Made by a program: the position numbers and the translations under genes. DNA of 32,000 nucleotides, from assembly GCA_050303655.1 (NCBI GenBank), contig JBNLCE010000005.1:1-32000 (forward strand). The letters run 5' to 3'. A model generated the notes under the pieces. That model had not been told where the DNA came from and made no database searches. It was given only the letters and a program-made list of their open reading frames with translations. The stretch's first letter is position 1; every line of letters starts with the position of its first letter. The DNA comes from Patescibacteria group bacterium. Its GTDB lineage: Bacteria > Patescibacteriota > Patescibacteriia > 2-12-FULL-60-25. This document shows positions 7,927-30,600 of the stretch, in pieces.

Positions 7927-10104
7927 TTATGACGAATAGTCCCGAATCAATTTTTCGATGAGCTCGGGAAGCGTTGTTGTGGTGCGCCATCCAAACTTCA
8001 TCTCTGCGCGATCCACGGCCGCACGGCTCACCGGCACATCCCATGGCCGCCCCTCCGACGGCTCCACACGCGGTTCAATGTGACGCTTATCGAGCCGCTC
8101 CTGCATGTGCTGCACAAACTCAATCAGCGATGTTGAAACACCGGTTCCAATATTCATAATCTCTCCGGCGCCGCGGAAGTTGTGTGTCGACATCATCGCA
8201 TCCACCACATCATCCACGTGGATAAAATCACGTTCAAAATCCGGGTTGGAAAGTGTTGGCGACGTGTCACTCATAAGCGCGCGGTACACAGCCGGCCCAA
8301 GACGATTCTCACCTTCACTTCCTCCGCACACGCTGAAGAATCGGAAGACGGTCAACGGACGTCCGGTGCGCTTTGCCCACTCCTGCGCCGCGCGCGTTGA
8401 CGCAAGCTTGGACTTTCCATACGGCGAATTCGGGTTGCACGGATCATTCTCGCGCATGGTTCCGCCGCTTGTCACGCCATATTCCGTCCAGCTCCCCGCA
8501 ACCACAACCGGGCACTCCGGAAGAGCCTCCAGGGCTGCGAGCAGATTCATCGTTCCTTCGGCGTTGGATTTGATTAATTCATCAACCGTTGTGTTGCGAT
8601 CGGGTCGCACGCCCGCCGCCGCAAGATGGAATACCGCATCAAACTCAAAGCCACGGAATGCACCCTGTACCTCTTCCGCATTCGCCAGATTCACACGAAA
8701 CGCACGAAGCCCGCGCGCAGACCGCGACAATGGATACACAATCGCTCCCTCGCCGTTTAAGCGCTCCACCAGACGAGAACCGATTGTTCCCGTTGCCCCT
8801 GTCACAAGTACGCGCTTCCCGCTCCACGGCTTCGCCGGAGCCACAGCATCTTTTGTTGATGGGACGGCGACCGAAGCTCCTGTCTTTTTTGTGTTCAAAA
8901 ATTCAGCAAATGCCGCCTTCATCCGCTCCACATCTTCGTTGGACAATCCCTGATGACACCCAACGAGCACTGAGCCACGCATCACCTGATCGGCATTGGG
9001 GTACCCCTCCGGAAGCACGCGAGACGCTCGGTCGCGGAACGCCGGCTGACGAAGAACGTTGCCCGTAAAGATCGGTCGCGTTTGAATACCGCGATCTTCC
9101 AAGAACCGAACAAGATCCATGCGATGGAACGGCGCGTCATCACGCACAACCAACGGAAACGCCAGCCACACATGTTCGGCGTTTGGATTTGATTTTGGGA
9201 GGACAAAAAAGGACTCGTATTGCTTAAAAAAGGCGAGCAGTTCGTTGAAATGACGCTGTCGCGTGTCATAAAAACCCTTAAACCGATCGAGCTGCGCGAG
9301 ACCAAACGCTGCGGAAATATCTGTCGCTTGAAAATTGTAACCAACCTCACCGAAGACAAACTTCCGGTCGTACGGAATCCCGTCGATATTCGCGTCAAAA
9401 CGATGGTTCGCGGTTTCACTTTCATCCACCGCTGATGACCGACCCCATCCGGCCAACACTCGCGCGCGCTGATACCACGCGTCATCATTCACACATACCA
9501 TGCCGCCGTTTCCGGCTGCCGTAATAATGTGCGAGGCATAAAAACTGGTTGTTGAAATGTGCGTATATGCTCCGGTCGGTTTTCCGTAGAGCGTGGCACC
9601 AAGCGTGTCGCAGGAATCCTCAACCAACCATAACCCGTGCGCATCTGCGATCTCTGAAAGTGCGCGGTAATCCGGAATGTTTCCCATGAGAGACGGAACC
9701 ATAATCGCCTTTGTGTTTGGCGTAATCAGCCGCTCAATCTGCGAAATGTCGATCTGATAATCGCCCGGCACAATATCCGTAAACGCAGGCACAAGCCCCT
9801 TTTGCAGAATTGGAGCCACCGTCGTACCAAATGTGAGCGCCGGAGTAATCACCTCGCTGCCTGCGGGCAAATCCAAAAGCTCAAACGCAAGCAAGTTGGC
9901 CGAGCTCCCGGAGTTCACGAATACACCCTTCTTTTTTCCGAAAAGCTCCGCGATCCGCGCTTCAAAGACACGTGCCTTCTCCCCATGACAAATCATGGGT
10001 GTTTTAAGTACATCTGCCACGGCGTTCCGCTCCTCATCGCCGAAGACGGCGAGAGCATACGGGATCCGAGGATGTCCTGCCGAATCCTTCCTAAACAATT
10101 TCAT
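7927..10104 (-). CDS. Fusion protein: DegT/RfbH/ColD-type sugar 3-dehydrase-like domain + extended-SDR epimerase/reductase domain
   Basis: The start is moved to the ATG at 10104 (GGAGG upstream; the track's 46-aa extension overlaps the upstream gene). The N-terminal domain has SFYASHIIT (His at codon 9529-9531 where aminotransferases have the PLP Lys) and the RfbH-like WGR...HRF...GYN..TD..AA.GLAQL. The C-terminal domain (about 7930-8820) has VTGATGTIGSRL and PYGKSK (YxxxK). Confidence 0.85.
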   Translation of the reverse strand: MKLFRKDSAGHPRIPYALAVFGDEERNAVADVLKTPMICHGEKARVFEARIAELFGKKKGVFVNSGSSANLLAFELLDLPAGSEVITPALTFGTTVAPILQKGLVPAFTDIVPGDYQIDISQIERLITPNTKAIMVPSLMGNIPDYRALSEIADAHGLWLVEDSCDTLGATLYGKPTGAYTHISTTSFYASHIITAAGNGGMVCVNDDAWYQRARVLAGWGRSSAVDESETANHRFDANIDGIPYDRKFVFGEVGYNFQATDISAAFGLAQLDRFKGFYDTRQRHFNELLAFFKQYESFFVLPKSNPNAEHVWLAFPLVVRDDAPFHRMDLVRFLEDRGIQTRPIFTGNVLRQPAFRDRASRVLPEGYPNADQVMRGSVLVGCHQGLSNEDVERMKAAFAEFLNTKKTGASVAVPSTKDAVAPAKPWSGKRVLVTGATGTIGSRLVERLNGEGAIVYPLSRSARGLRAFRVNLANAEEVQGAFRGFEFDAVFHLAAAGVRPDRNTTVDELIKSNAEGTMNLLAALEALPECPVVVAGSWTEYGVTSGGTMRENDPCNPNSPYGKSKLASTRAAQEWAKRTGRPLTVFRFFSVCGGSEGENRLGPAVYRALMSDTSPTLSNPDFERDFIHVDDVVDAMMSTHNFRGAGEIMNIGTGVSTSLIEFVQHMQERLDKRHIEPRVEPSEGRPWDVPVSRAAVDRAEMKFGWRTTTTLPELIEKLIRDYSS

Positions 10105-10142: not shown

Positions 10143-11144
10143 CTAATCCCGAATCGGGATGTTCGGATTCCGTGCAAAGAAATCCGTATACCACGCCACA
10201 ACCCGTGGCAACCCCTCCTCCATCGTCACCTTCGGCTCCCAACCAAGCATTCGCTTAATTTTCTCGGCCGAAAGATACTGCACGAGAATCTCGCGCTGCT
10301 CCCCATTCTTCCGAATCGGTTCCATATCCGGACGACCCATAGCATGCGCGATACGACGCAATACGTCGTACGTAGAAATTGGCTTCTCCCATCCAAGATT
10401 AAACGCTTCACCCGTGAGTCCGTGGTCCAGCCGCTCCGCAATCATCCGAAACGCCGCAACCGCGTCCTCAACGTACACGTAGTCGCGAATGGAGTCGTGT
10501 AACAACTCCGGCTGCAAACCATTCAGGATCCGATGGATCGTACGTGGGAAGATGCGCGTAAAGTGCGAGTCTCCTCCGCCATAGAAGTTACCGGAGCGCA
10601 CAATGGCGATCGGCATCCCATACGTCCGCGCGTACATTTGGCTGATCAAATCGGTACAGCTCTTGGAGACCTCGTATGGAAATTCCCCCTGAAGTGCAGC
10701 GTCTTCTTTATACGGCATGACTTCCTGCGTTCCGTACGCTTTGTCGGAGGATGCCACAACGATATGAATCGATGGATCAATACGACGCGCAGCCTCAAGA
10801 ACATTGATTGACCCAACGATGTTTGCTTCCAAAGTCCCCATGGGGTCCTCAAGCGCGGTCTTGCAGATAGGCTGTGCACCAAGATGAAAAATCGTTTGAA
10901 TTTTGTGGTCGCGCAAAATCCGCTCAATCGACTTGTTGTGCACGATGTCGCCGTAAATCACACGGCATGATTTTTCCAAACCCTCTGTTTCAAACACGGA
11001 AAATGGATTGCGTTGGTAAATCAGCGCGGTCAAATCCGCCCCGCGGCTAATCAAGTCTTTCGACACCCAACCGGCCAAAAAGCCGTTTGCGCCCGTAATC
11101 AACACCCGTCGTCCTTGCCAGTAATTTTCCATACCATTATTCAC
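10143..11144 (-). CDS. NDP-hexose 4,6-dehydratase (CDP-glucose 4,6-dehydratase-like extended SDR)
   Basis: N-terminus YWQGRRVLITGANGFLAGW (RfbG-like W-x-GK-x-V-x-TG), SSDKAYG, and YEVSK (YxxxK). Confidence 0.8.
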   Translation of the reverse strand: MNNGMENYWQGRRVLITGANGFLAGWVSKDLISRGADLTALIYQRNPFSVFETEGLEKSCRVIYGDIVHNKSIERILRDHKIQTIFHLGAQPICKTALEDPMGTLEANIVGSINVLEAARRIDPSIHIVVASSDKAYGTQEVMPYKEDAALQGEFPYEVSKSCTDLISQMYARTYGMPIAIVRSGNFYGGGDSHFTRIFPRTIHRILNGLQPELLHDSIRDYVYVEDAVAAFRMIAERLDHGLTGEAFNLGWEKPISTYDVLRRIAHAMGRPDMEPIRKNGEQREILVQYLSAEKIKRMLGWEPKVTMEEGLPRVVAWYTDFFARNPNIPIRD

Positions 11145-11814
11145 GCCAGTATTTGTACATGTTCTTCAAGAATTCAAAAATGGTTGCCACGCGCACCTGG
11201 GACGATCCATGTTCCCGCGCCGCGGTGCGGATCTCCACTTCGCCCATGGGCACGTTGAGACGCGAGGCCTTGATAACGATCTCCGGATCAATGAACCAGT
11301 CACGCGAATTGATATTCGCCCGCGTAAAGAAATCGCGTGTAAACAGCTTCGGGCTTCCGTTGATATCGCGCAACTTCACACCAAACATGGTTCGGAAAAG
11401 CGTGTTATACCCCTTGCTGATCACCCAGCGATACGCGCCATCATGCCGATCCAAACGCGTGGCCTTGCACACATCAAGGCCGTCATTCCGCAGACGCTCG
11501 TAAATGCGTACCACGTCCATCGGATCCATCTGATTATCCGCGTGCAGATACCCCATCACCCGACCGACGGCGTTGTCAAAACCGGCGTGTAGGGCATTTC
11601 CAAAACCTTTTCGCGTTTCAAGAATGGGACGCAGGCGCGGATACGATGGAGCGAGCTCGTTCAACACCTGCTCCGTGTGGTCGGTAGAGGCGTTATTCAC
11701 CACCAAAATCTCGTACGGAACGCCAACACCCGAAAGAATACGATCCACCCTGGGGACCAATGTTCGGAGGTTCTCGGCCTCGTTATAGGCGGGAATGACA
11801 ATGCTGAGTTCCAT
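11137..11814 (-). CDS. GT2 polyprenyl-phosphate glycosyltransferase (DPM1/ArnC-like)
   Basis: LSIVIPAYNEAENL N-terminus, soluble, ~225 aa, no TM domain. The stop overlaps the downstream start by 8 nt. Confidence 0.88.
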   Translation of the reverse strand: MELSIVIPAYNEAENLRTLVPRVDRILSGVGVPYEILVVNNASTDHTEQVLNELAPSYPRLRPILETRKGFGNALHAGFDNAVGRVMGYLHADNQMDPMDVVRIYERLRNDGLDVCKATRLDRHDGAYRWVISKGYNTLFRTMFGVKLRDINGSPKLFTRDFFTRANINSRDWFIDPEIVIKASRLNVPMGEVEIRTAAREHGSSQVRVATIFEFLKNMYKYWRE

Positions 11815-11893: not shown

Positions 11894-13243
11894 ATGATAG
11901 CCAACGCTCCACGCTCCACGCTCCACGTTTCAAGATACTTGAAAACACCCATTTTTCTTATCTTTTTGCTCGGTCTCATGCTCCGACTCGGCTCATTAAG
12001 CGTCAATTTTGACAAAATGAGCTGGAAAAATGATTGGCGCATGTCCGTACCCGCCGTCCGAATCCTTGAGGGAAAAGGATTGAGCCTCACAGATGAAACC
12101 GGGCCCAGCGCCTATCGGCCTCCGCTCTACATCCTGTGGCTCTCAGGCGCGTATGCCATCTTCGGAGATTTTGCGGAATTCGGTCCGAGCCTCCTCCAAA
12201 TTCTCGTGAGTAGCGGAAACGTCTTGCTCATCTACCTTCTTGCAAAAGAAATCTGGAAGCGCGAAGACGCCGCGCTCTCCGCCGCACTTCTCCTTGCCAT
12301 TCACCCATACGTCGTGTGGCACGATGCCGCGCTGTACCACACCTTTTTAAGCACCGCACTTCTCCTTGCTGGCAGCCTGTTCCTCGTTCGCGGCTTTGAT
12401 TCCAAAAAACCAAAACCTCTTTTTGCGAGCGGGCTCTTTTTTGGACTTTGTATTTTAATCATGAGCGTCATCGTTCCATGGCTCGCGCTTGCGATCGTGG
12501 CAGGTATTACGCTGTGGAAAATCCCGGTCACACGTCGCCTGATGCTTACTGGATCATTCGCCGCCGGGATTCTTCTTGCATGGAGTCCGTGGATCATCCG
12601 AAACGCCGTCGTCTTCCATGAATTCGTTCCCCTCACCACCGAAGCCGGTGTGACGCTCTGGATGGGCAACAACCCGCAGGCGGAAGAGCTACTCAAGCTC
12701 CGCCAGCACGAAGCCGCCCCCGTTCCACAAGGAACCGCGTTTAACTTGCCCAGCGCGTACGAAGGATGCGTGCCGGACGATTGGTGCGTCGGCGGGATCA
12801 AAGAGACCGATGAAAATCGCGCGCTCAAAGACATGGCGATGGGATGGATCAAAGAGAACCCATGGAGATTTGTTCGCCTCACCGCGTGGAGATACGGGGG
12901 TATTTGGTCGCCGTTCCTCACGCCGTCAAAATCATTCTTTGGAAACCAAACCCTCAATGCACTTGCGAACTACGGATATGCACTGTGGAACATCGGGCTC
13001 TTCGTGCTCTTCATCCTCGGCTTCCGTGAGGCATGGAAATCAAAACGTGATCGCTCCATTACGATCCTGCTCACCCTCCTCGCACTTTCCGCCACCGGCG
13101 CATACGCACTCTTCCTCTACTTCACTAAATACCGCATTCCATTTGAGAGCGTTCTCCTCGCCATTTGCGGCGCAGGACTCGCAAACATCATCGCAAAGCA
13201 GATAAAAAAAGACCCGCGCAAGAAGTCGCAGGCCCATGAATGA
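11894..13243 (+). CDS. GT-C fold glycosyltransferase (PMT_2/ArnT-like, family 39/83-like)
   Basis: At least 10 TM helices with an ArnT/PMT-like layout. Start taken at the ATG at 11894 (the track start at 11879 is TTG). It is divergent from the GT2 gene. Confidence 0.8.
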   Translation: MIANAPRSTLHVSRYLKTPIFLIFLLGLMLRLGSLSVNFDKMSWKNDWRMSVPAVRILEGKGLSLTDETGPSAYRPPLYILWLSGAYAIFGDFAEFGPSLLQILVSSGNVLLIYLLAKEIWKREDAALSAALLLAIHPYVVWHDAALYHTFLSTALLLAGSLFLVRGFDSKKPKPLFASGLFFGLCILIMSVIVPWLALAIVAGITLWKIPVTRRLMLTGSFAAGILLAWSPWIIRNAVVFHEFVPLTTEAGVTLWMGNNPQAEELLKLRQHEAAPVPQGTAFNLPSAYEGCVPDDWCVGGIKETDENRALKDMAMGWIKENPWRFVRLTAWRYGGIWSPFLTPSKSFFGNQTLNALANYGYALWNIGLFVLFILGFREAWKSKRDRSITILLTLLALSATGAYALFLYFTKYRIPFESVLLAICGAGLANIIAKQIKKDPRKKSQAHE

Positions 13244-13255
13244 AGACGATTATCC

Positions 13256-13552
13256 TCACTCCGGATCTTCCAGGTAGACCGTTGCAACGCCCTCCTCGTC
13301 GACCTCCATCCGACCGTACACATCGATCCACGCCTTCAGACCATTCTCATCTCCCTCAGTCGACGTTCCCGGAACACAATTGCGATCCGAGATCTGACCG
13401 TCGAAGCCCCACGACGAAAGCGGACAAAAAAACCTCTCCTTTCCGGCGTACACACGCCAGTGGCTTGGACGTCCCTCGCGAATATTGTCTGCACGTCCGG
13501 CAAACCGGTGCCACGCGGTGTCGAATGTTTTTGCCATATACATCGCAAGCAC
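13256..13552 (-). CDS. Hypothetical small protein
   Basis: ~95 aa with a balanced composition. The competing + strand ORF (13240-13893) is Pro/Arg/Ser-rich shadow. No SD and no family recognised. Confidence 0.35.
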   Translation of the reverse strand: MLAMYMAKTFDTAWHRFAGRADNIREGRPSHWRVYAGKERFFCPLSSWGFDGQISDRNCVPGTSTEGDENGLKAWIDVYGRMEVDEEGVATVYLEDPE

Positions 13553-13583
13553 AGCCTAATGCGCTCGCTACGCGAGGTCAATT

Positions 13584-14288
13584 CTACCGCAGAGGACGAT
13601 TCAAACGATACTCACCCTTTGTTCGCGTATACACACCGCCTTCACACGAGTACACAAGCGGAACCCCGTTCGGAAGATCCACAAATGAGATCTTTTCGTC
13701 ATCAAATTTCTCCAAATGCTTGATCACCGCCCGCAGTGTATTCCCGTGCGCAGACACAAGAATCTGTTCGCCCTTTTCCACGCGCGGAAAAATCTCGCTC
13801 TCAAAATACGGGAGAACACGATTAAACACATCCTCTAAGCTCTCCCCACCCGGCGGGCGATCACGAAATCCCCGCCGCCACTTATACGTCTGATCTTTTC
13901 CGTGTTTTTTGACGACGTCATCCTTATTCTCTCCTTGCAACTCGCCGTACGCACGTTCATTCAATGCTTCATGCGAAAAAATGGGGAGCGTTTCATTTAC
14001 AAACCACTTTGGAAGATGATCGAGGTGGTTGTACCGCTCATCATCACCGTGGTCAAAAATACCGATCTTATGCTGGCTGGAAAGGATAATCAGAAGCGTT
14101 TCATGAGCGCGCTCTAGATTCGATGTAAACGCTGCGTCATAATCGAACACTTCGCAATACTCCCCAGCCTTTTGAGCTTCGCGGACTCCATTTTCGCTAA
14201 GAGGGACATCAATCCATCCCGTAAAACGGTTTAGGAGGTTCATCCGAGATTCTCCGTGACGAACCAACACAAGTGCGCCTTTTTTCAT
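13584..14288 (-). CDS. gpmA: 2,3-bisphosphoglycerate-dependent phosphoglycerate mutase
   Basis: LVRHGESRMNLLNRFTGW (RHGE motif), and a histidine phosphatase fold with SAHGNTLRA. Start moved to the ATG at 14288 (MKKGALVLVRHGES). Confidence 0.9.
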   Translation of the reverse strand: MKKGALVLVRHGESRMNLLNRFTGWIDVPLSENGVREAQKAGEYCEVFDYDAAFTSNLERAHETLLIILSSQHKIGIFDHGDDERYNHLDHLPKWFVNETLPIFSHEALNERAYGELQGENKDDVVKKHGKDQTYKWRRGFRDRPPGGESLEDVFNRVLPYFESEIFPRVEKGEQILVSAHGNTLRAVIKHLEKFDDEKISFVDLPNGVPLVYSCEGGVYTRTKGEYRLNRPLR

Positions 14289-14349
14289 AAAATGAGTATA
14301 TCGGTGCCGCATCAAACAAAAAAGCCTGCGCCTTCAGCTGCCATTGAAA

Positions 14350-27354: not shown

Positions 27355-27561
27355 CTATCCAGAGGGGTTTGGCTTTTGGATGGAGATTCTATTTGGGCAT
27401 TTAGGAATCAGGCATAGGAGCTCATTGAATTCGGATCGGGTTATGGTGGTAAGGGCGTGGCACTTTTTGCATTTCACCTCGATCTCCCCCTCCACAAGAA
27501 GACCTTTAAATAGAAGTGCGTGGCACGTTTTGCATCGAAATTCGCGTTGGCAGGCTCCCAT
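27355..27561 (-). CDS. Mu Com-like zinc-ribbon small protein (68 aa)
   Basis: MGACQREFRCKTCHALLFKGLLVEGEIEVKCKKCHAL matches the Com pattern RC..C..LLFK......IE..C..C. Start taken at the internal ATG at 27561 because the longer track ORF runs through the NrdR boxes. No SD. Confidence 0.55.
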   Translation of the reverse strand: MGACQREFRCKTCHALLFKGLLVEGEIEVKCKKCHALTTITRSEFNELLCLIPKCPNRISIQKPNPSG

Positions 27562-27598
27562 ATAGAGGGAGGATACCACACCGTTAAGATGCGCAGAA

Positions 27599-27614
27599 AC
27601 ACAAGATATTGTGT
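27599..27614 (-). promoter_or_regulatory. NrdR box (promoter-proximal)
   Basis: ACACAAGATATTGTGT is a 16-bp palindrome matching the NrdR-box consensus acaCwAtATaTwGtgt. Confidence 0.8.
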
Positions 27615-27624
27615 TTCGTAAATG

Positions 27625-27633
27625 ATTATACCA
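27625..27633 (-). promoter_or_regulatory. Extended -10 (TGGTATAAT) of the nrd promoter
   Basis: Minus strand reads GTGGTATAAT between the two NrdR boxes. Confidence 0.65.
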
Positions 27634-27646
27634 CAACATATTGTGG
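27631..27646 (-). promoter_or_regulatory. NrdR box (distal)
   Basis: CCACAACATATTGTGG. There is a 16-bp gap (32 bp centre to centre) to the proximal box, which is the usual tandem arrangement. Confidence 0.8.
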
Positions 27647-27709
27647 TCACTTAGATTTCCCTGGGGATAAGTGATATTCTATATATGAAAATTATTCATT
27701 TCCTTAAAT

Positions 27710-27982
27710 ATGTTCTTCAAAAAGAAAAACAAAATGTCCTTTGACGTGTCTCGCGCGTCGCTTGCGGCAGGTTTGACCGCCGCCCTCTTCATGCTCGTGC
27801 TCAGTCTTTTAAATGCCGTTGGCGTGTATGAAAACGCCGCCATGCAGATGATGGAGTGGCATATGTTCTACGCCACCGACGTGACCGGTACGATCACCGG
27901 GATGATCGAGGCGTTCATTGTAACCTACGTCATGGTGTACGTTTTTGGCCACACGTACCATCACCTGGGTTCCAAGAAATAG
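27710..27982 (+). CDS. Small two-TM membrane protein
   Basis: 90 aa with two hydrophobic helices, followed by a strong terminator. The family is not securely recognised. Confidence 0.6.
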   Translation: MFFKKKNKMSFDVSRASLAAGLTAALFMLVLSLLNAVGVYENAAMQMMEWHMFYATDVTGTITGMIEAFIVTYVMVYVFGHTYHHLGSKK

Positions 27983-28000
27983 ATTTAATTGAAAGAAAGA

Positions 28001-28030
28001 ACGCCTCGCGAAGTCGCGGGGCGTTTTGAT
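28001..28030 (+). terminator. Rho-independent terminator
   Basis: ACGCCTCGCG-AAGT-CGCGGGGCGT followed by TTTTG. Confidence 0.8.
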
Positions 28031-28032
28031 TT

Positions 28033-28070
28033 AAAAACGCCCCGACCATGGAGTAACCACAGTCAGGGCG
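28033..28070 (-). terminator. Terminator of the small-ORF operon
   Basis: Minus strand reads CGCCCTGAC-15 nt-GTCGGGGCG followed by TTTTTAAAT, 44 nt after the ORFh stop. Confidence 0.6.
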
Positions 28071-28113
28071 CGTACGAGCCACCGAGTGAACCGGCGGCGA
28101 CTATCAGAACGCT

Positions 28114-28335
28114 TCAGCGCATCACTTCGCGGAACATTGCCGCGGTCACGCCGGGAAGCCCCCTGAGCGCCGTGATGGCCTCGTCCATCCGCTTCTCCCT
28201 CCACCACCGCACGGCGTCTTGCGCCATGCGAATGGGGGTGGTCATGACCGCACCGGCCACGAGGGTGATTGGGAGACGCGCGGTCTCCACCCACGCCTTC
28301 GCCCGACGGCGCGTAGCGCGAATGGAGGCACGCAT
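28114..28335 (-). CDS. Small ORF h (73 aa), one hydrophobic segment
   Basis: MRASIRATRRRAKAWVETARLPITLVAGAVMTTPIRMAQDAVRWWREKRMDEAITALRGLPGVTAAMFREVMR. This is the C-terminal part of the 138-aa track ORF; that ORF's N-terminal half is Arg/His junk overlapping ORFg. The ATG is 14 nt after the ORFg stop, with a weak SD. Confidence 0.45.
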   Translation of the reverse strand: MRASIRATRRRAKAWVETARLPITLVAGAVMTTPIRMAQDAVRWWREKRMDEAITALRGLPGVTAAMFREVMR

Positions 28336-28349
28336 CAGAAATGCCGGCC

Positions 28350-28523
28350 TCACACCCGTACTCCAATGGGAACGGTGAGCAGATCGCCGAGCTTTCTGAA
28401 CCCGACGTCGAACGCCCCCTCGAGGGTCATGAGCAGGGCGCCGATGATGCCGCCCATGATGCCCGCGAAGATGAGCGCGGCGATGAAGCCGGCTCCGAGT
28501 CCTGCCAAAAAATCTACTGCCAA
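28350..28523 (-). CDS. Small ORF g (57 aa): glycine-zipper membrane peptide, TTG start
   Basis: AAAGGAGG-TGCACC-TTG, then (M)AVDFLAGLGAGFIAALIFAGIMGGIIGALLMTLEGAFDVGFRKLGDLLTVPIGVRV. It is not in the ORF track (<60 aa). Confidence 0.6.
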   Translation of the reverse strand: MAVDFLAGLGAGFIAALIFAGIMGGIIGALLMTLEGAFDVGFRKLGDLLTVPIGVRV

Positions 28524-28547
28524 GGTGCACCTCCTTTTCTTTTGTTA

Positions 28548-28629
28548 CACCTACATCAGATTCGCAATGATTCGATATATCGTCAATTGGGGAGAGACAA
28601 TATCTCGAATGCGAACCTGGTGTAGGTGG
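28548..28629. repeat. Long imperfect inverted repeat (~30-bp arms)
   Basis: Left arm CACCTACATCAGATTCGCAATGATTCGATAT. The reverse complement of the right arm is CACCTACACCAGGTTCGCATTCGAGATAT. The centre contains TTGACG on the minus strand. Confidence 0.75.
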
Positions 28630-28656
28630 AGGAGCCGCGCGAGTGCGTGACTCCTC
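28629..28656 (-). repeat. Post-stop hairpin, copy D
   Basis: GAGGAGCCGCGC-GAGT-GCGTGACTCCTC, 8 nt from the ORFf stop codon (28665-28667). Confidence 0.75.
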
Positions 28657-28664
28657 TCAAAGAG

Positions 28665-28847
28665 CTAGTCGCTCTTCTTGTCACGCCGACGAGTCATCTC
28701 GTCGACGATCGCCTGGATGTGACCGTCCAGGTCGGTTCTTTCACAGTTCGATGACGTGATCTTTGATCGCGCCTCCGTGAGACGCTCCAGCTCCGCACGG
28801 AGCTCGTCATCGCCCATGTCCTTCAGAGCCTTGAGCTCATCACTCAT
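28665..28847 (-). CDS. Small ORF f (60 aa), helical; paralog of d and e
   Basis: AAGGAGG-TGGGCC-ATG. MSDELKALKDMGDDELRAELERLTEARSKITSSNCERTDLDGHIQAIVDEMTRRRDKKSD. The start overlaps the ORFe stop (ATGAGTGA). The track shows it only as the tail of a 120-aa shadow ORF. Confidence 0.65.
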   Translation of the reverse strand: MSDELKALKDMGDDELRAELERLTEARSKITSSNCERTDLDGHIQAIVDEMTRRRDKKSD

Positions 28848-29055
28848 GGCCCACCTCCTTCGTGTTGACGCGGATACCGCGCGTGCGACACACCGCGAGA
28901 ACTGATTCGATCTTCCGATCCATGCCGGTCTTCCCGACGTAGGAAGACCCTGACTTGCGCTGAAGCTTTGTGAACTCCTCGCGCGACGCGCGGAGCCTCT
29001 TGAGCTCCACCTTGAGCTCATCGTCATTCAGTGCCTCGTAATCAACTTCACTCAT
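28840..29055 (-). CDS. Small ORF e (71 aa), helical; paralog of d and f
   Basis: AAGGAGG-TGAGTC-ATG. MSEVDYEALNDDELKVELKRLRASREEF... Third codon positions are G/C-rich by eye. Confidence 0.65.
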   Translation of the reverse strand: MSEVDYEALNDDELKVELKRLRASREEFTKLQRKSGSSYVGKTGMDRKIESVLAVCRTRGIRVNTKEVGHE

Positions 29056-29087
29056 GACTCACCTCCTTGGTGAGGGATAGATCTGAA

Positions 29088-29156
29088 CTCTCAGAACTGC
29101 CGAAGGATTTCGGAAGTTCAGTTGAGTGGAGGAACCTGCGAGTTGCAAGCTCCTCC
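29088..29156 (-). repeat. Intercistronic two-hairpin element, copy A
   Basis: Forward strand: CTCTCA, GAACT-[GCCGAAGGATTTCGGA]-AGTTC, an 8-nt linker, then GAGGAACCTGC-GAGTT-GCAAGCTCCTC. It is 9 nt from the ORFd stop. Confidence 0.75.
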
Positions 29157-29165
29157 GGGTGGGTG

Positions 29166-29336
29166 TCAGCGTTTGTTGCGGACGGTGAATACTGCGTCGA
29201 TGATAACGATCCTGCGGTCGCCATTCGAACGCTCGGACTTATCACGCGCGAGCCGCTCGAGTTGCGCCATGAGCAGATACTGCTCCAAGCTATCGTTTGG
29301 CTGGTAGTTGCCGCTGAGGTAATTCTGATTTTGCAT
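29166..29336 (-). CDS. Small ORF d (56 aa); paralog of e and f
   Basis: GGGAGG-AAAAGG-ATG. MQNQNYLSGNYQPNDSLEQYLLMAQLERLARDKSERSNGDRRIVIIDAVFTVRNKR. It is not in the ORF track. Confidence 0.55.
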   Translation of the reverse strand: MQNQNYLSGNYQPNDSLEQYLLMAQLERLARDKSERSNGDRRIVIIDAVFTVRNKR

Positions 29337-29381
29337 CCTTTTCCTCCCGAGTTAAAGGGGCTGTTTATTCCCCGATTTCAT

Positions 29382-29439
29382 CTCTCAAATTTCTTTCAGA
29401 AATGGAATCGGGAGAGGAACGTCGAGTGACGTTCCTCTC
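29382..29439 (-). repeat. Intercistronic two-hairpin element, copy C
   Basis: CTCTCA, ATTTCT-TTC-AGAAAT, an 8-nt linker, then GAGAGGAACGTC-GAGT-GACGTTCCTCTC (perfect 12-bp stem). It is 7 nt from the ORFc stop. Confidence 0.8.
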
Positions 29440-29446
29440 GTGCGGC

Positions 29447-29803
29447 TTACGCCGCGATGGCGTTGATTTGAGCATCTTCGCTATAGAGCACGAAGACGTT
29501 TCTCGCCTCATGCAGAAGCGCCAGTCTCCACTCTACAGGAATCCCTGCTCGCATGAGCAACCGTCGTGTCGTGACTCGACGACTCGAGATCGAGAGGCCG
29601 TAGGCGAGCTCGTTCAGCAAGCTCCTCATCGCCTTCTTGATCTCCATGGCGGCTCTCACGCTCTGATCGTCTTGATCCAAAAGCGTGTAGAAAGCCTCTA
29701 GAGCTCTCCGCACCCGCCTCGGCGGCGCGGTCATGATCGCGCCTTCCGGCTTGTTGATGTCACCAAACTCAGTCGACTTCCCAGTCAAATTCAGTACGAG
29801 CAT
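29447..29803 (-). CDS. Small ORF c (118 aa) with possible C-terminal HTH
   Basis: GGGAGGA-TGCA-ATG. The C-terminal segment NELAYGLSISSRRVTTRRLLMRAG resembles sigma-70 region-4 or other HTH helices, but this similarity is weak. Confidence 0.6.
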   Translation of the reverse strand: MLVLNLTGKSTEFGDINKPEGAIMTAPPRRVRRALEAFYTLLDQDDQSVRAAMEIKKAMRSLLNELAYGLSISSRRVTTRRLLMRAGIPVEWRLALLHEARNVFVLYSEDAQINAIAA

Positions 29804-29843
29804 TGCATCCTCCCTCTCTGCCTTTCAGGCAGATTTTGGTTTA

Positions 29844-29910
29844 CTCTCAGAACGCTCGAATGATTCAAACGTTCAATTGAGCGAGGAACCATGCGAGCGC
29901 ATAGTTCCTC
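29844..29910 (-). repeat. Intercistronic two-hairpin element, copy B
   Basis: CTCTCA, GAACG-[CTCGAATGATTCAAA]-CGTTC, an 8-nt linker, then GAGGAACCATGC-GAGC-GCATAGTTCCTC. It is 10 nt from the ORFb stop. Confidence 0.8.
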
Positions 29911-29920
29911 TTCGCCGCTG

Positions 29921-30160
29921 TTACGCGGCGTACTTCTCGTCTAGCCTACGGAGCTTCCGACGTAGATCGCGGATCTCACGCTTCAGCTCCTTGCTCCTCT
30001 CGTCCAACCGAGCGCGTTGCTCGTACACCGAGAATCCCATCGGGTTGAACCCGCCGGGTCCGCCGAACAAAGTCGTCTCCAGAGAGGAGCGGCGCTTTCG
30101 CAGGTCGCGAAGCGCATCTTCCCTACGCGCGATGGAGTCGTGAATCTCGGGCCTCGTCAT
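29921..30160 (-). CDS. Small ORF b (79 aa), coiled-coil ends with a Gly-rich centre
   Basis: AAGGAGG-TGAAGTG-ATG. MTRPEIHDSIARREDALRDLRKRR...GGPGGFNPMG...LKREIRDLRRKLRRLDEKYAA. The ATG shares one nt with the ORFa stop (TGATG). Confidence 0.65.
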   Translation of the reverse strand: MTRPEIHDSIARREDALRDLRKRRSSLETTLFGGPGGFNPMGFSVYEQRARLDERSKELKREIRDLRRKLRRLDEKYAA

Positions 30161-30264
30161 CACTTCACCTCCTTCTCGATATCGTGGTCGCAGTCGCCCA
30201 AGACCAACTCGGCCAAGCGGGCAACGATCTCATTGATACGAGTCTGATTTTCCGAATTTTCCAT
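30160..30264 (-). CDS. Small ORF a (34 aa)
   Basis: GAGGAGG-AATC-ATG. MENSENQTRINEIVARLAELVLGDCDHDIEKEVK. It is not in the ORF track. A competing 15-codon out-of-frame uORF starts at 30277. Confidence 0.45.
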   Translation of the reverse strand: MENSENQTRINEIVARLAELVLGDCDHDIEKEVK

Positions 30265-30358
30265 GATTCCTCCTCATTTATTCACTCCTGATCCCCTCTG
30301 ATCAGAAGCCCCTCGAATGGGAGAATGATTTCTCCTATTTGAGGGTAGATTGTCGAAG

Positions 30359-30426
30359 TAACAATAAAACGTGATAGGAATAGGGCCTTTTATAGAAAAA
30401 GCGCGATTCCTACCACGTTTTGGTAG
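30359..30426 (-). terminator. Leader terminator/antiterminator pair
   Basis: On the mRNA: ACGUGGUAGGAAU-24 nt-AUUCCUAUCACGU followed by UUUAUUGUU. The upstream hairpin CUACCA-AAACG-UGGUAG uses the same UGGUAG. Confidence 0.55.
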
Positions 30427-30477
30427 ATATCTGCCCGCTCTCCCCTTCGGACGTATTCTTCAAGTTTTAACAAGAAC

Positions 30478-30506
30478 AATATAGCACCTTTTGGAAGTTT
30501 TGTCAA
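30478..30506 (-). promoter_or_regulatory. Near-consensus sigma-70 promoter of the small-ORF operon
   Basis: Minus strand reads TTGACA-17 nt-TATATT with TG at the extended -10 position (TGCTATATT). Confidence 0.7.
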
Positions 30507-30600
30507 GTCCCCTTTGCATGGGGGTTAAAAATGGCTTATTTTAGGGAAGATTTTGACGAAACGCTCGCGAACCGCTACAAAACCCCCTATAATTACCTCT

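Follow-up and report, generated by a model that had tools for sequence, protein, structure and literature searches.

A recurrent scaffold of paired hairpin modules carries arrays of small genes at different sites in two Patescibacteria genomes

The stretch of DNA analysed here (the window) comprises 32,000 nucleotides of a Patescibacteria group bacterium (contig JBNLCE010000005.1, positions 1 to 32,000) and harbors a 2.5-kb minus-strand unit at 28033-30510, in which eight tiny orphan genes, referred to as a to h, are arranged in five cassettes (ab / c / d / ef / gh). All cassettes have the same orientation, lack promoters of their own and are located behind one promoter, and the first four of them are followed by a repeated module of two abutting hairpins, which we named HP1 and HP2. 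The same scaffold, i.e. a consensus promoter, a terminator-bearing leader, HP1+HP2 modules and a terminator, is present in two Patescibacteria genomes at different sites. With a probability of about 0.5, the array belongs to a family of modular small-gene arrays, as yet undescribed, that resides in genomes of the Patescibacteria, also known as Candidate Phyla Radiation (CPR). Mobile-element-style small-gene arrays with repeated start-associated or intercistronic motifs are of a known kind; the structured RNA module is undescribed.

HP1 starts 8-10 nt downstream of the stop codons of b, c, d and f and forms a hairpin of 12 bp, the base of which is GAGGARY/RYUCCUC, whereas its middle part varies; the (A)CUC loop is closed by a C-G pair. 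HP2, a tiered hairpin, starts at the nucleotide directly after HP1. It has CUC/GAG as the basal stem, AAYU/UGA as a 4x3 internal loop, GAAC/GUUC as the middle stem and an apical stem that varies around GAAAUCAUUC; its conserved segments are CUCAAYUGAAC, GAAAUCAUUC and GUUCUGAGAG. The coordinates of the four modules are listed in Table 1. In module 4, the 3' half of the HP2 retains CCCAAUUGA..GAAUCAUU..UCUGA, and GUUCUGAUAGU recurs directly past the stop of h, where the gh cassette just carries a weak HP1-like hairpin and then the terminator. Within the window, 22-45 further nucleotides lie between HP2 and the next Shine-Dalgarno (SD) sequence. A covariance model of HP1 detected exactly four copies in the 32 kb, all of them inside the operon and with scores of 31-41 bits (next match: 14.6), and the pattern GAGGARC..CTCG..GYTCCTC gave three matches compared to 0.00 expected. 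The original prediction, which was made from the letters of the window only, had pointed out a cassette-like layout with repeated RNA hairpins; layout and hairpins are real, except that the latter are not assorted stems but copies of one bipartite module. No copy was found by the HP1 model in 434 kb from the loci of relatives, and the HP2 model detected none in the remainder of the 32 kb and none in other loci totalling 934 kb. These stretches are those in which dispersed copies, as of a genome-wide repeat of the REP or MITE type, were looked for. In viral contigs, the HP1 pattern gave at least 120 single matches, which we attribute to chance, and the best of these (L140) is located in a phage structural region with unrelated GGAGGG hairpins; the HP2 and module patterns gave nothing in these contigs, or chance matches inside coding regions.

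Both the pairing pattern and the folding energies point to an element acting as RNA. In the HP1 alignment, 97.8% of the cells are paired and 4 of the 12 pairs show compensatory changes, compared to 43-54% of paired cells in slid controls. All intergenic regions of the array fold with z-scores between -4.8 and -8.4, and for most elements the sense strand is the better folder, which is owed to G-U pairs (HP1_de: -20.6 kcal/mol for sense vs -12.4 kcal/mol for antisense; HP2_bc: -15.1 vs -6.3 kcal/mol; terminator: -27.0 vs -16.7 kcal/mol). This preference suggests that the modules belong to the transcript rather than to duplex DNA.

A second occurrence of the module was identified in metagenome contigs by means of the pattern CTCAAYTGAAC-N14-22-GTTCTGAGAG, which is derived from HP2. 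Two of the three matches were rejected as chance matches: one contig (L182) appears to be eukaryotic, with long low-complexity tracts and an interrupted amino-acid-biosynthesis gene, and the other (L183) looks like coding sequence. The third contig (L181), the proteins of which have near-identical copies annotated as Patescibacteria, also has the 8-nt run AATCATTC inside the unspecified gap of the pattern and encodes, within 1.6 kb, four small open reading frames (ORFs), each with a 9-bp hairpin (CCCGAG...CUCGGG) in front, which abuts an HP2-type tiered hairpin. The 3' strand of the latter runs into the SD, i.e. the SD lies in the 3' strand of HP2. In its full context (L197), this sister locus is an islet between ileS-ruvA and glmS-femAB and includes at least five HP2 modules, each located before an SD and an ATG and four of them directly preceded by an HP1 hairpin. 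The islet begins with a TTGACA-17-TATATT promoter, which has the core CTTGACAA...GTGnTATA as in the window. The core is carried by both sister promoters, the second of which serves the cassette array, overlaps the perfect palindrome TTGTCAAG-N5-CTTGACAA and is followed by five or six cassettes with modules and finally by a terminator.

The relation between the two loci is apparent from several comparisons. A model built from three L181 copies, which had not been used in the search, had its best match in the window on module 1 and on the correct strand, and a combined HP2 model found a further sister copy, left out of model building, with 26 bits. For the basal and middle helices of six HP2 copies from both loci, 95.8% of the cells are paired and 4 of the 8 pairs show compensatory changes (slid controls: 31-68%). 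Of the exact 11-12-mers common to both loci, 6 out of 11 are module segments, and the 12-nt apex of the leader hairpin L2 in the window is identical to the apex of module 2b in L197. The ORFs of L197/L181 share nothing with a to h. The sister array is the same scaffold at a different site with unrelated cargo, and the claim that the unit matches no known system withstood our tests in so far as none of the systems tested fits, although the unit is not unique. Outside the islet, the 20 kb of L197 contain no HP1 or HP2, with the exception of one weak 13-bit match. Rfam models returned nothing in L181 at E-values up to 10 and nothing in the L197 islet at E-values up to 1, and blastn of L181 against phage records gave no match. 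The sister locus is identical in seven samples, without any cassette turnover being seen, and polymorphism in this locus was uninformative as a test, because the locus is clonal.

One gene of the sister cargo is STIV_B116-like (DUF1874), as indicated by Pfam (4e-12), PHROGs (1.6e-18) and 43% identity to a protein of phage THSA-485A. DUF1874 represents the AcrIII-1 family of viral ring nucleases (bioRxiv 10.1101/778746). The sister gene contains an in-frame TAG at L197 9793-9795 (L181 765-767), which is identical in the samples covering this position, and homology to the THSA-485A protein continues across the TAG (residues 4-104); readthrough, recoding or a split gene could underlie this observation.

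Further observations concern the surroundings of the sister modules. At L197 8375-8565, just before the second promoter, a consensus promoter is followed by a ~165-nt RNA ending in an intrinsic terminator, which has no Rfam match and no convincing similarity to the leader in the window and which may represent either a small RNA of its own or a decoupled leader. Two of the public gene calls appear to be incorrect: the 90-aa call at 8674-8946 on the minus strand appears to be the shadow of an SD-led 55-aa ORF on the plus strand (8707-8874), and the 126-aa call at 9001-9381 on the plus strand runs through an HP1+HP2 module, with an inner SD and ATG at 9190 giving 63 aa. Finally, a non-coding stretch of ~400 nt is located before glmS (10960-11389). 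It includes TTGACT...TACTTT, which resembles a promoter, as well as a terminator around 11310-11345 and a weak match to HP2 (11253-11306, 13 bits); it matches no Rfam family, the glmS ribozyme included.

With both loci at hand, HP2 could alternatively be read as a promoter. TGAAC-N17-20-TCTGA occurs only at the two canonical HP2 copies (two matches vs 0.23 expected) and resembles the GGAAC...TCTGA type of promoters recognized by extracytoplasmic function (ECF) sigma factors. In this case, the module would combine a terminator (HP1) with a promoter (HP2) for an alternative sigma factor, which could be of the ECF type or encoded by the element, and each cassette would be transcribed separately. 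Moreover, ACTTGAC and ACTTCC..AAA are found both in the main promoter region and in the 5' half of HP2, and CACTTGACTGAG is read in one of the sister modules. However, the supposed -35 and -10 elements are linked by compensatory changes (GAAC/GUUC in the window vs GGA/UCC in the sister locus), which a promoter does not need, and the apical stem covaries as well. In addition, the sister SD begins 2-3 nt past the supposed -10 element, so that a transcript starting from there would be devoid of an SD, and HP1 has no U tract. We regard such a promoter function of HP2 as highly unlikely, and the same applies to a separate transcription of the cassettes.

The ends of the unit are in agreement with the original prediction, which had placed a near-consensus promoter, a structured leader of ~205 nt and a terminator made of a hairpin and a U tract there. 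The promoter matches 11 of the 12 consensus positions, has the TG extension and is the sole strong site on the minus strand. The leader folds with a z-score of -5.2 and includes a 56-nt terminator-like hairpin, and the terminator consists of a 15-bp stem (28037-28071) followed by UUUUU, in a region shared with a convergent gene for a 90-aa protein. The series of leader hairpins L1 to L3 is a repeat of the intercistronic hairpin theme. Rfam covariance models gave nothing meaningful for leader and modules in 28000-30530 at E-values up to 10, and the array region does not contain tRNA-like elements. Hammerhead and similar ribozyme readings of CUGAGAG were rejected, as the core does not fit and Rfam has no match.

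The genes a to h, all of which had been proposed before at the same positions and are present in the ORF list, are very probably real, as indicated by several sequence features. GGAGG or GGGAGG is located 4-7 nt before seven of the eight starts, with h being the exception, and the start context of b, e, f and g reads AAGGAGGTG, both as claimed. The start/stop overlaps of a/b (TGATG) and e/f (ATGAGTGA) can be read directly in the sequence. A bias for G/C at third codon positions (GC3), which had been noticed for e and f, extends to all eight proposed frames (0.70-0.82 vs 0.35-0.66 in 23 host genes). GC3 > GC1 > GC2 holds in register in all eight ORFs, and with codon usage trained on the host, the proposed frame scores above both shifted frames in 8/8 cases, with the highest score for g (0.358). 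A public gene caller assigned identical boundaries to a-f on an independent assembly, which is identical in sequence to the one studied here. For this reason, this assembly (L001), being the same sequence as the window, was rejected as a source for the ratio of nonsynonymous to synonymous substitutions. An exact look-up in a public protein collection retrieved a, b, c, d, e, f and h, while g was not found. The frame of h is open further upstream to a GTG at 28530 (138 aa; 28114-28530, minus strand), and this longer version would overlap g out of frame; by codon scores, g is preferred to the extension. The N-terminal part of h (MRASIRATRRRAKAW) is rich in arginine at first and continues with a hydrophobic segment.

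Three of the eight genes resemble each other. BLASTP aligns e and f with an E-value of 4e-6, and hhalign aligns d with the e/f profile over 32 columns (E = 0.018). Between e and f, 23, 32 and 19 of 42 aligned codons are identical at positions 1, 2 and 3, respectively, and for d against e and f the corresponding numbers are 31, 35 and 23 of 64. Based on these alignments, d, e and f are one paralogous family, and the order pos2 > pos1 > pos3 indicates coding sequence that diverged under protein-level constraint. AlphaFold, using the d/e/f alignment, models e as a two-helix hairpin (predicted local distance difference test, pLDDT, 77), for which Foldseek returned only generic uL29-like hairpins with E ≥ 0.5. 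The model of c is unusable (pLDDT 42) and c has no family match, so that its earlier interpretation as a possible helix-turn-helix (HTH) protein found no support.

These data bear on the possibility that the ORFs are not genes at all, and that the region is a structured non-coding RNA array or contains decayed pseudogenes with chance open frames. Consistent with this, the searched ORFs have no homologue anywhere, the region is unusually structured, and long ORFs are open in several frames across the unit. On the other hand, the strong and correctly spaced SDs, the codon periodicity in register, the two start/stop overlaps and the protein similarity retained among d, e and f would not be expected, and the hairpins are located strictly between the ORFs and never inside them. 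We consider this explanation extremely unlikely.

Searches for relatives of the eight proteins confirmed that they do not fit any known family. Pfam, PHROGs, PADLOC and NCBIfam gave only coiled-coil noise for all eight peptides, including b, and PHROGs had no match with E < 0.001. No HTH model, no known anti-CRISPR (Acr) or anti-CRISPR-associated (Aca) protein and no defence or anti-defence family was matched, and for the a-h pairs nothing above noise was obtained from toxin or antitoxin families in Pfam, NCBIfam and PADLOC. Searches of billion-scale protein collections covered c, e and the d/e/f profile. For c, there was no relative among 5.8 billion clustered proteins (word-indexed search) or 1.84 billion representatives (exhaustive HMMER search), and e and the d/e/f profile returned only themselves, with nothing outside this genome. 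When the PDB was searched by sequence with c, b, h and the d/e/f profile, matches were either absent or short and spurious. In the public collection, the seven products other than g are singletons at 90% identity; the host NrdD is likewise a singleton, which indicates that the lineage is thinly sampled. Blastn of the islet against 50,697 phage records and against plasmid records gave no match, so that known prophages, plasmids or toxin-antitoxin modules, any of which would have contradicted novelty, did not emerge from these searches.

The array is part of an islet of ~2.9 kb (about 27650-30510) between the nrdD/Com-like locus and a ZIP transporter gene. The GC3 values of the operon ORFs and of the convergent gene for a 90-aa protein with two transmembrane (TM) segments exceed those of all 23 host genes tested (highest: 0.66), and because of this the islet looks foreign to its host, with the 90-aa ORF probably being part of it in view of its GC3 of 0.74. 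The latter ORF has a sub-threshold match to NCBIfam holin_4 (E = 1.5e-4, 22 bits vs a cutoff of 70), which was not corroborated by Pfam and PHROGs. Likewise, GC3 in the L197 islet is 0.65-0.82 compared to 0.40-0.57 in host genes on either side. Apart from the islet, the window contains ordinary cellular genes, including those for a sortase, glycosyltransferases, purH, msrA and a metal ATPase. As claimed originally, neither an integrase or transposase (Pfam annotation of the larger ORFs in the 32 kb) nor a phage structural gene is present, and the islet is not flanked by direct or inverted repeats. Precomputed Pfam matches for the genes called in 20 kb of L197 did not include a recombinase.

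The host NrdD shares 74-79% identity with proteins from metagenome-assembled genomes of Patescibacteria, Paceibacteria and Uhrbacteria. Synteny with these relatives is limited to the Com-like zinc-ribbon gene beside nrdD, whereas the operon, the 90-aa membrane gene and ZIP are absent from them; none of 59 loci compared through NrdD contains the operon, ZIP or the hairpins. A look for the same gene order in related genomes, as had been suggested, thus ended with its absence next to nrdD in CPR relatives. The Com-like ORF is kept in place in four of them (L002, L004, L013, L060) and therefore belongs to the nrd locus and not to the islet; for the same reason, i.e. its conservation beside nrdD in relatives without the operon, we rejected the Com-like protein as a candidate hairpin binder. 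Elsewhere in the window, a long ORF on the plus strand (13240-13893) overlaps with a likewise long opposite-strand ORF for a His_Phos_1 phosphatase (13584-14315, minus strand). In view of its negative codon score (-0.23), a GC2 of 0.60 and the lack of a family match, the plus-strand ORF is probably not a gene.

Table 1 Features of the array and its neighbourhood. Positions refer to the window; hairpins of the modules are termed HP1 and HP2, those of the leader L1 to L3.
Feature	Position	Strand	Description
Promoter	30478..30506	-	TTGACA (30506-30501), 17-nt spacer, TATATT (30483-30478), TG extension; near-consensus sigma-70, extended -10
Leader	30265..30471	-	~207 nt, structured; fold z = -5.2
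Leader hairpin L1	30366-30421	-	56 nt, terminator-like, AGGAAU/AUUCCU base, then UUUUAUUGUU
Small leader hairpin	30349-30365	-	
Leader hairpin L2	30310-30345	-	HP2-like, apex GAGAAAUCAUUC
Leader hairpin L3	30284-30309	-	includes CUUCUGAUCAGAG
ORF a	30160..30264	-	34 aa, acidic; GC3 0.71; stop overlaps start of b (TGATG)
ORF b	29921..30160	-	79 aa, Arg-rich, predicted two helices and Gly/Pro loop; GC3 0.76
Module 1	29843..29910	-	HP1 29883-29910 abutting canonical HP2 29843-29882 (48.7 bits)
ORF c	29447..29803	-	118 aa, orphan; GC3 0.70
Module 2	29371..29439	-	HP1 29412-29439, perfect 12-4-12 palindrome; diverged HP2 29371-29412
ORF d	29166..29336	-	56 aa, paralogue of e and f
Module 3	29087..29156	-	HP1 29128-29156 abutting canonical HP2 29087-29127 (49.1 bits)
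ORF e	28840..29055	-	71 aa, predicted two-helix hairpin; 8-nt overlap with f (ATGAGTGA)
ORF f	28665..28847	-	60 aa, paralogue of e
Module 4	28548..28656	-	HP1 28629-28656 (41.3 bits); expanded, diverged HP2 28548-28628
ORF g	28350..28523	-	57 aa, TTG start, Gly-zipper hydrophobic peptide; GC3 0.76
ORF h	28114..28335	-	73 aa, no SD, start 14 nt past stop of g; GC3 0.82
Distal end	28030..28110	-	GUUCUGAUAGU motif 28100-28110; weak HP1-like hairpin 28078-28098; intrinsic terminator
Convergent ORF	27710..27982	+	90 aa, two TM; GC3 0.74
Com-like zinc-ribbon ORF	27355-27639	-	Pfam Zn_ribbon_Com, E = 4e-4; directly upstream of nrdD

A different origin of the array would be a native, lineage-specific operon, which grew by tandem duplication of a small gene together with its 3' hairpins and which involves nothing mobile, the likeness of the modules being due to common ancestry only. 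The paralogy of d, e and f, with e and f sharing SD and start context, the confinement of the modules to the operon within 32 kb and the lack of mobility genes and flanking repeats are compatible with this possibility. However, modules 1 and 3 have ~75% identity along a stretch of about 70 nt, although the preceding ORFs b and d are unrelated, and the same module segments occur at another site of another genome with unrelated cargo. Furthermore, both islets stand out from their hosts in GC3, and the CPR relatives with 74-79% NrdD identity do not have the operon next to nrdD. Such a purely local duplication is thus unlikely.

Unrelated cargo combined with conserved palindromic elements is also reminiscent of integrons, and the modules could represent DNA recombination sites, i.e. 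non-canonical attC analogues, at which cassettes would be captured and shuffled, in an array of cassettes that lacks an integrase (cluster of attC sites lacking integron-integrases, CALIN). Both kinds of array have one strong promoter and small, mostly orphan cassettes in the same orientation and without promoters of their own; in both, similar structured repeats, here a conserved, imperfectly palindromic element past each stop, follow cargo that is unrelated within and between loci, and the scaffold is common to two chromosomal sites with different cargo. Nevertheless, a search for the attC core sites R'' (RYYYAAC) and R' (GTTRRRY) at a distance of 40-150 nt on both strands identified no pair in any intergenic region, the only one in the unit being located inside ORF b. 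While attC folds into a single, imperfect hairpin, which includes extrahelical bases and a central spacer that is unpaired, the sites of the array consist of two abutting hairpins, and the stem of HP1 is perfect or near-perfect and without extrahelical bases. In integrons, it is the folded bottom strand that recombines. Here, the sense strand folds better due to its G-U pairs, and this strand asymmetry points to RNA. In addition, no tyrosine recombinase was identified among the larger ORFs of the 32 kb or among the genes called in the 20 kb that surround the sister islet, and the constancy of the sister array in seven samples does not indicate any exchange of cassettes. Taken together, an integron-like nature of the array appears distinctly unlikely.

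By analogy, the closest described systems are the SAS (start-associated sequences) and their extended form (ESAS) of Cluster K mycobacteriophages as well as the RNase III sites located between phage T7 early genes. SAS are short, SD-containing motifs just before the starts of many small non-structural genes, and about half of them are directly preceded by an imperfect inverted repeat, the spacer of which is variable (ESAS); the copies are found in one orientation, the consensus differs between lineages, and the function is still unproven (PMC3203893, PMC12699233). The sister locus is similar in that an HP1 hairpin is followed by a conserved stretch that runs into SD and ATG, and the inverted repeat of HP1 (12-nt arms, 4-5 nt spacer) can be compared, in its analogous position, with the imperfect 17-bp repeats and 4-13 bp spacers of ESAS, a resemblance by analogy only, the sequences being unrelated. 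The 13-bp SAS consensus GGGATAGGAGCCC (at most 2 mismatches), which characteristically lies 3-8 bp before start codons, gave two matches in 32 kb, neither of which is located in the operon. In contrast to SAS/ESAS, the modules consist of two abutting, covarying RNA hairpins 8-10 nt past the upstream stop, are separated from the SD by 22-45 nt in the window, and reside in small chromosomal islets of Patescibacteria and not in a complete phage genome.

In T7, the early transcript has one or more strong promoters, small genes and a terminal terminator, with a repeated stem-loop that leaves a protective 3' hairpin after cleavage. The RNase III processing sites are reportedly located between the cistrons, as attributed to Dunn and Studier. 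The array shares with this arrangement the promoter, the putatively polycistronic small genes, the terminator and the repeated, similar intercistronic stem-loops with an internal loop, and the HP2 architecture, in which an asymmetric 4x3 internal loop separates the basal from the upper stem, appears comparable in shape only. It differs in that there is no relation in sequence, no phage genome surrounds the array, and the stems of HP1 and HP2 with 12-15 bp are shorter than typical RNase III substrates, unless they are stacked.

A third comparison concerns acr-aca operons, which likewise have a very strong promoter, a short operon and tiny, fast-evolving, mostly orphan proteins (PMC9410906; PMC13551039). 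The DUF1874/AcrIII-1 homologue of the sister array and the perfect palindrome overlapped by its second promoter add to this resemblance. The differences are that none of the window proteins matches an Acr, Aca or HTH model and that the array resides on a chromosome and not on a recognisable phage or plasmid. To our knowledge, acr operons have not been described to contain repeated hairpin modules between their cistrons.

From these comparisons, a possible mode of action of the array can be proposed. The scaffold would probably be derived from a phage or another mobile element and would carry accessory, possibly counter-defence, genes; such an origin rests on the composition, the patchy distribution and the one virus-type gene. 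The whole array would be produced as one transcript, which could be attenuated by the leader hairpin. The modules would act at the level of RNA, as a 3' stabiliser or processing site of the upstream cistron and by gating the translation of the downstream cistron, as suggested by the strand asymmetry, the covariation, the fixed place past the stops and the sequestration of the SD in the sister locus. Within a locus, selection or gene conversion may keep the modules alike. A bolder version of this proposal, which we consider rather unlikely as a whole, is that HP1+HP2 is a new class of structured RNA defining a portable expression scaffold of Patescibacteria and their mobile elements, into which unrelated small genes, counter-defence genes such as those for AcrIII-1-type ring nucleases among them, are slotted and exchanged; the module would then serve both as a gate for RNA processing or translation and as homology patch for the exchange of cassettes, and a to h would be effectors employed by a CPR bacterium or its mobile element against defence systems, the host or rivals.

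Several points weigh against the assignment of the array to a new family. The assumption of one transcript for the whole array, of its attenuation and of its processing is drawn from the sequence. Canonical HP2 copies are restricted to modules 1 and 3, with modules 2 and 4 and the leader being diverged, and the model derived from the sister locus alone reaches just 5.6 bits (E ~1) on module 1. The known loci are two, one of them clonal across samples, so that the covariation is based on few and related copies. No functional inference emerged for any of the eight window proteins, and phage structural genes, integrases and flanking repeats are lacking in both islets. Finally, cellular ring nucleases of the DUF1874 type also occur, and the role of the family as an anti-CRISPR in native systems is a matter of debate (bioRxiv 10.1101/2023.01.10.523387).

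CPR bacteria represent a large and mostly uncultured share of bacterial diversity, the mobile elements, regulatory RNAs and small proteins of which are barely charted. The bipartite module provides a new searchable RNA motif, which is supported by covariation and absent from Rfam, and the gene-array scaffold recurs with different cargo in at least two CPR genomes. A link to counter-defence is given by the gene for an anti-CRISPR-type ring nuclease in the sister array. If the module marks accessory or counter-defence cassettes, searches with its covariance model could uncover many further orphan effectors in the way aca genes are used to find acr genes; if it is an RNA processing site or a translation gate, regulation inside operons would gain a new example. 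In addition, the module could help to explain the SAS/ESAS repeats of mycobacteriophages.

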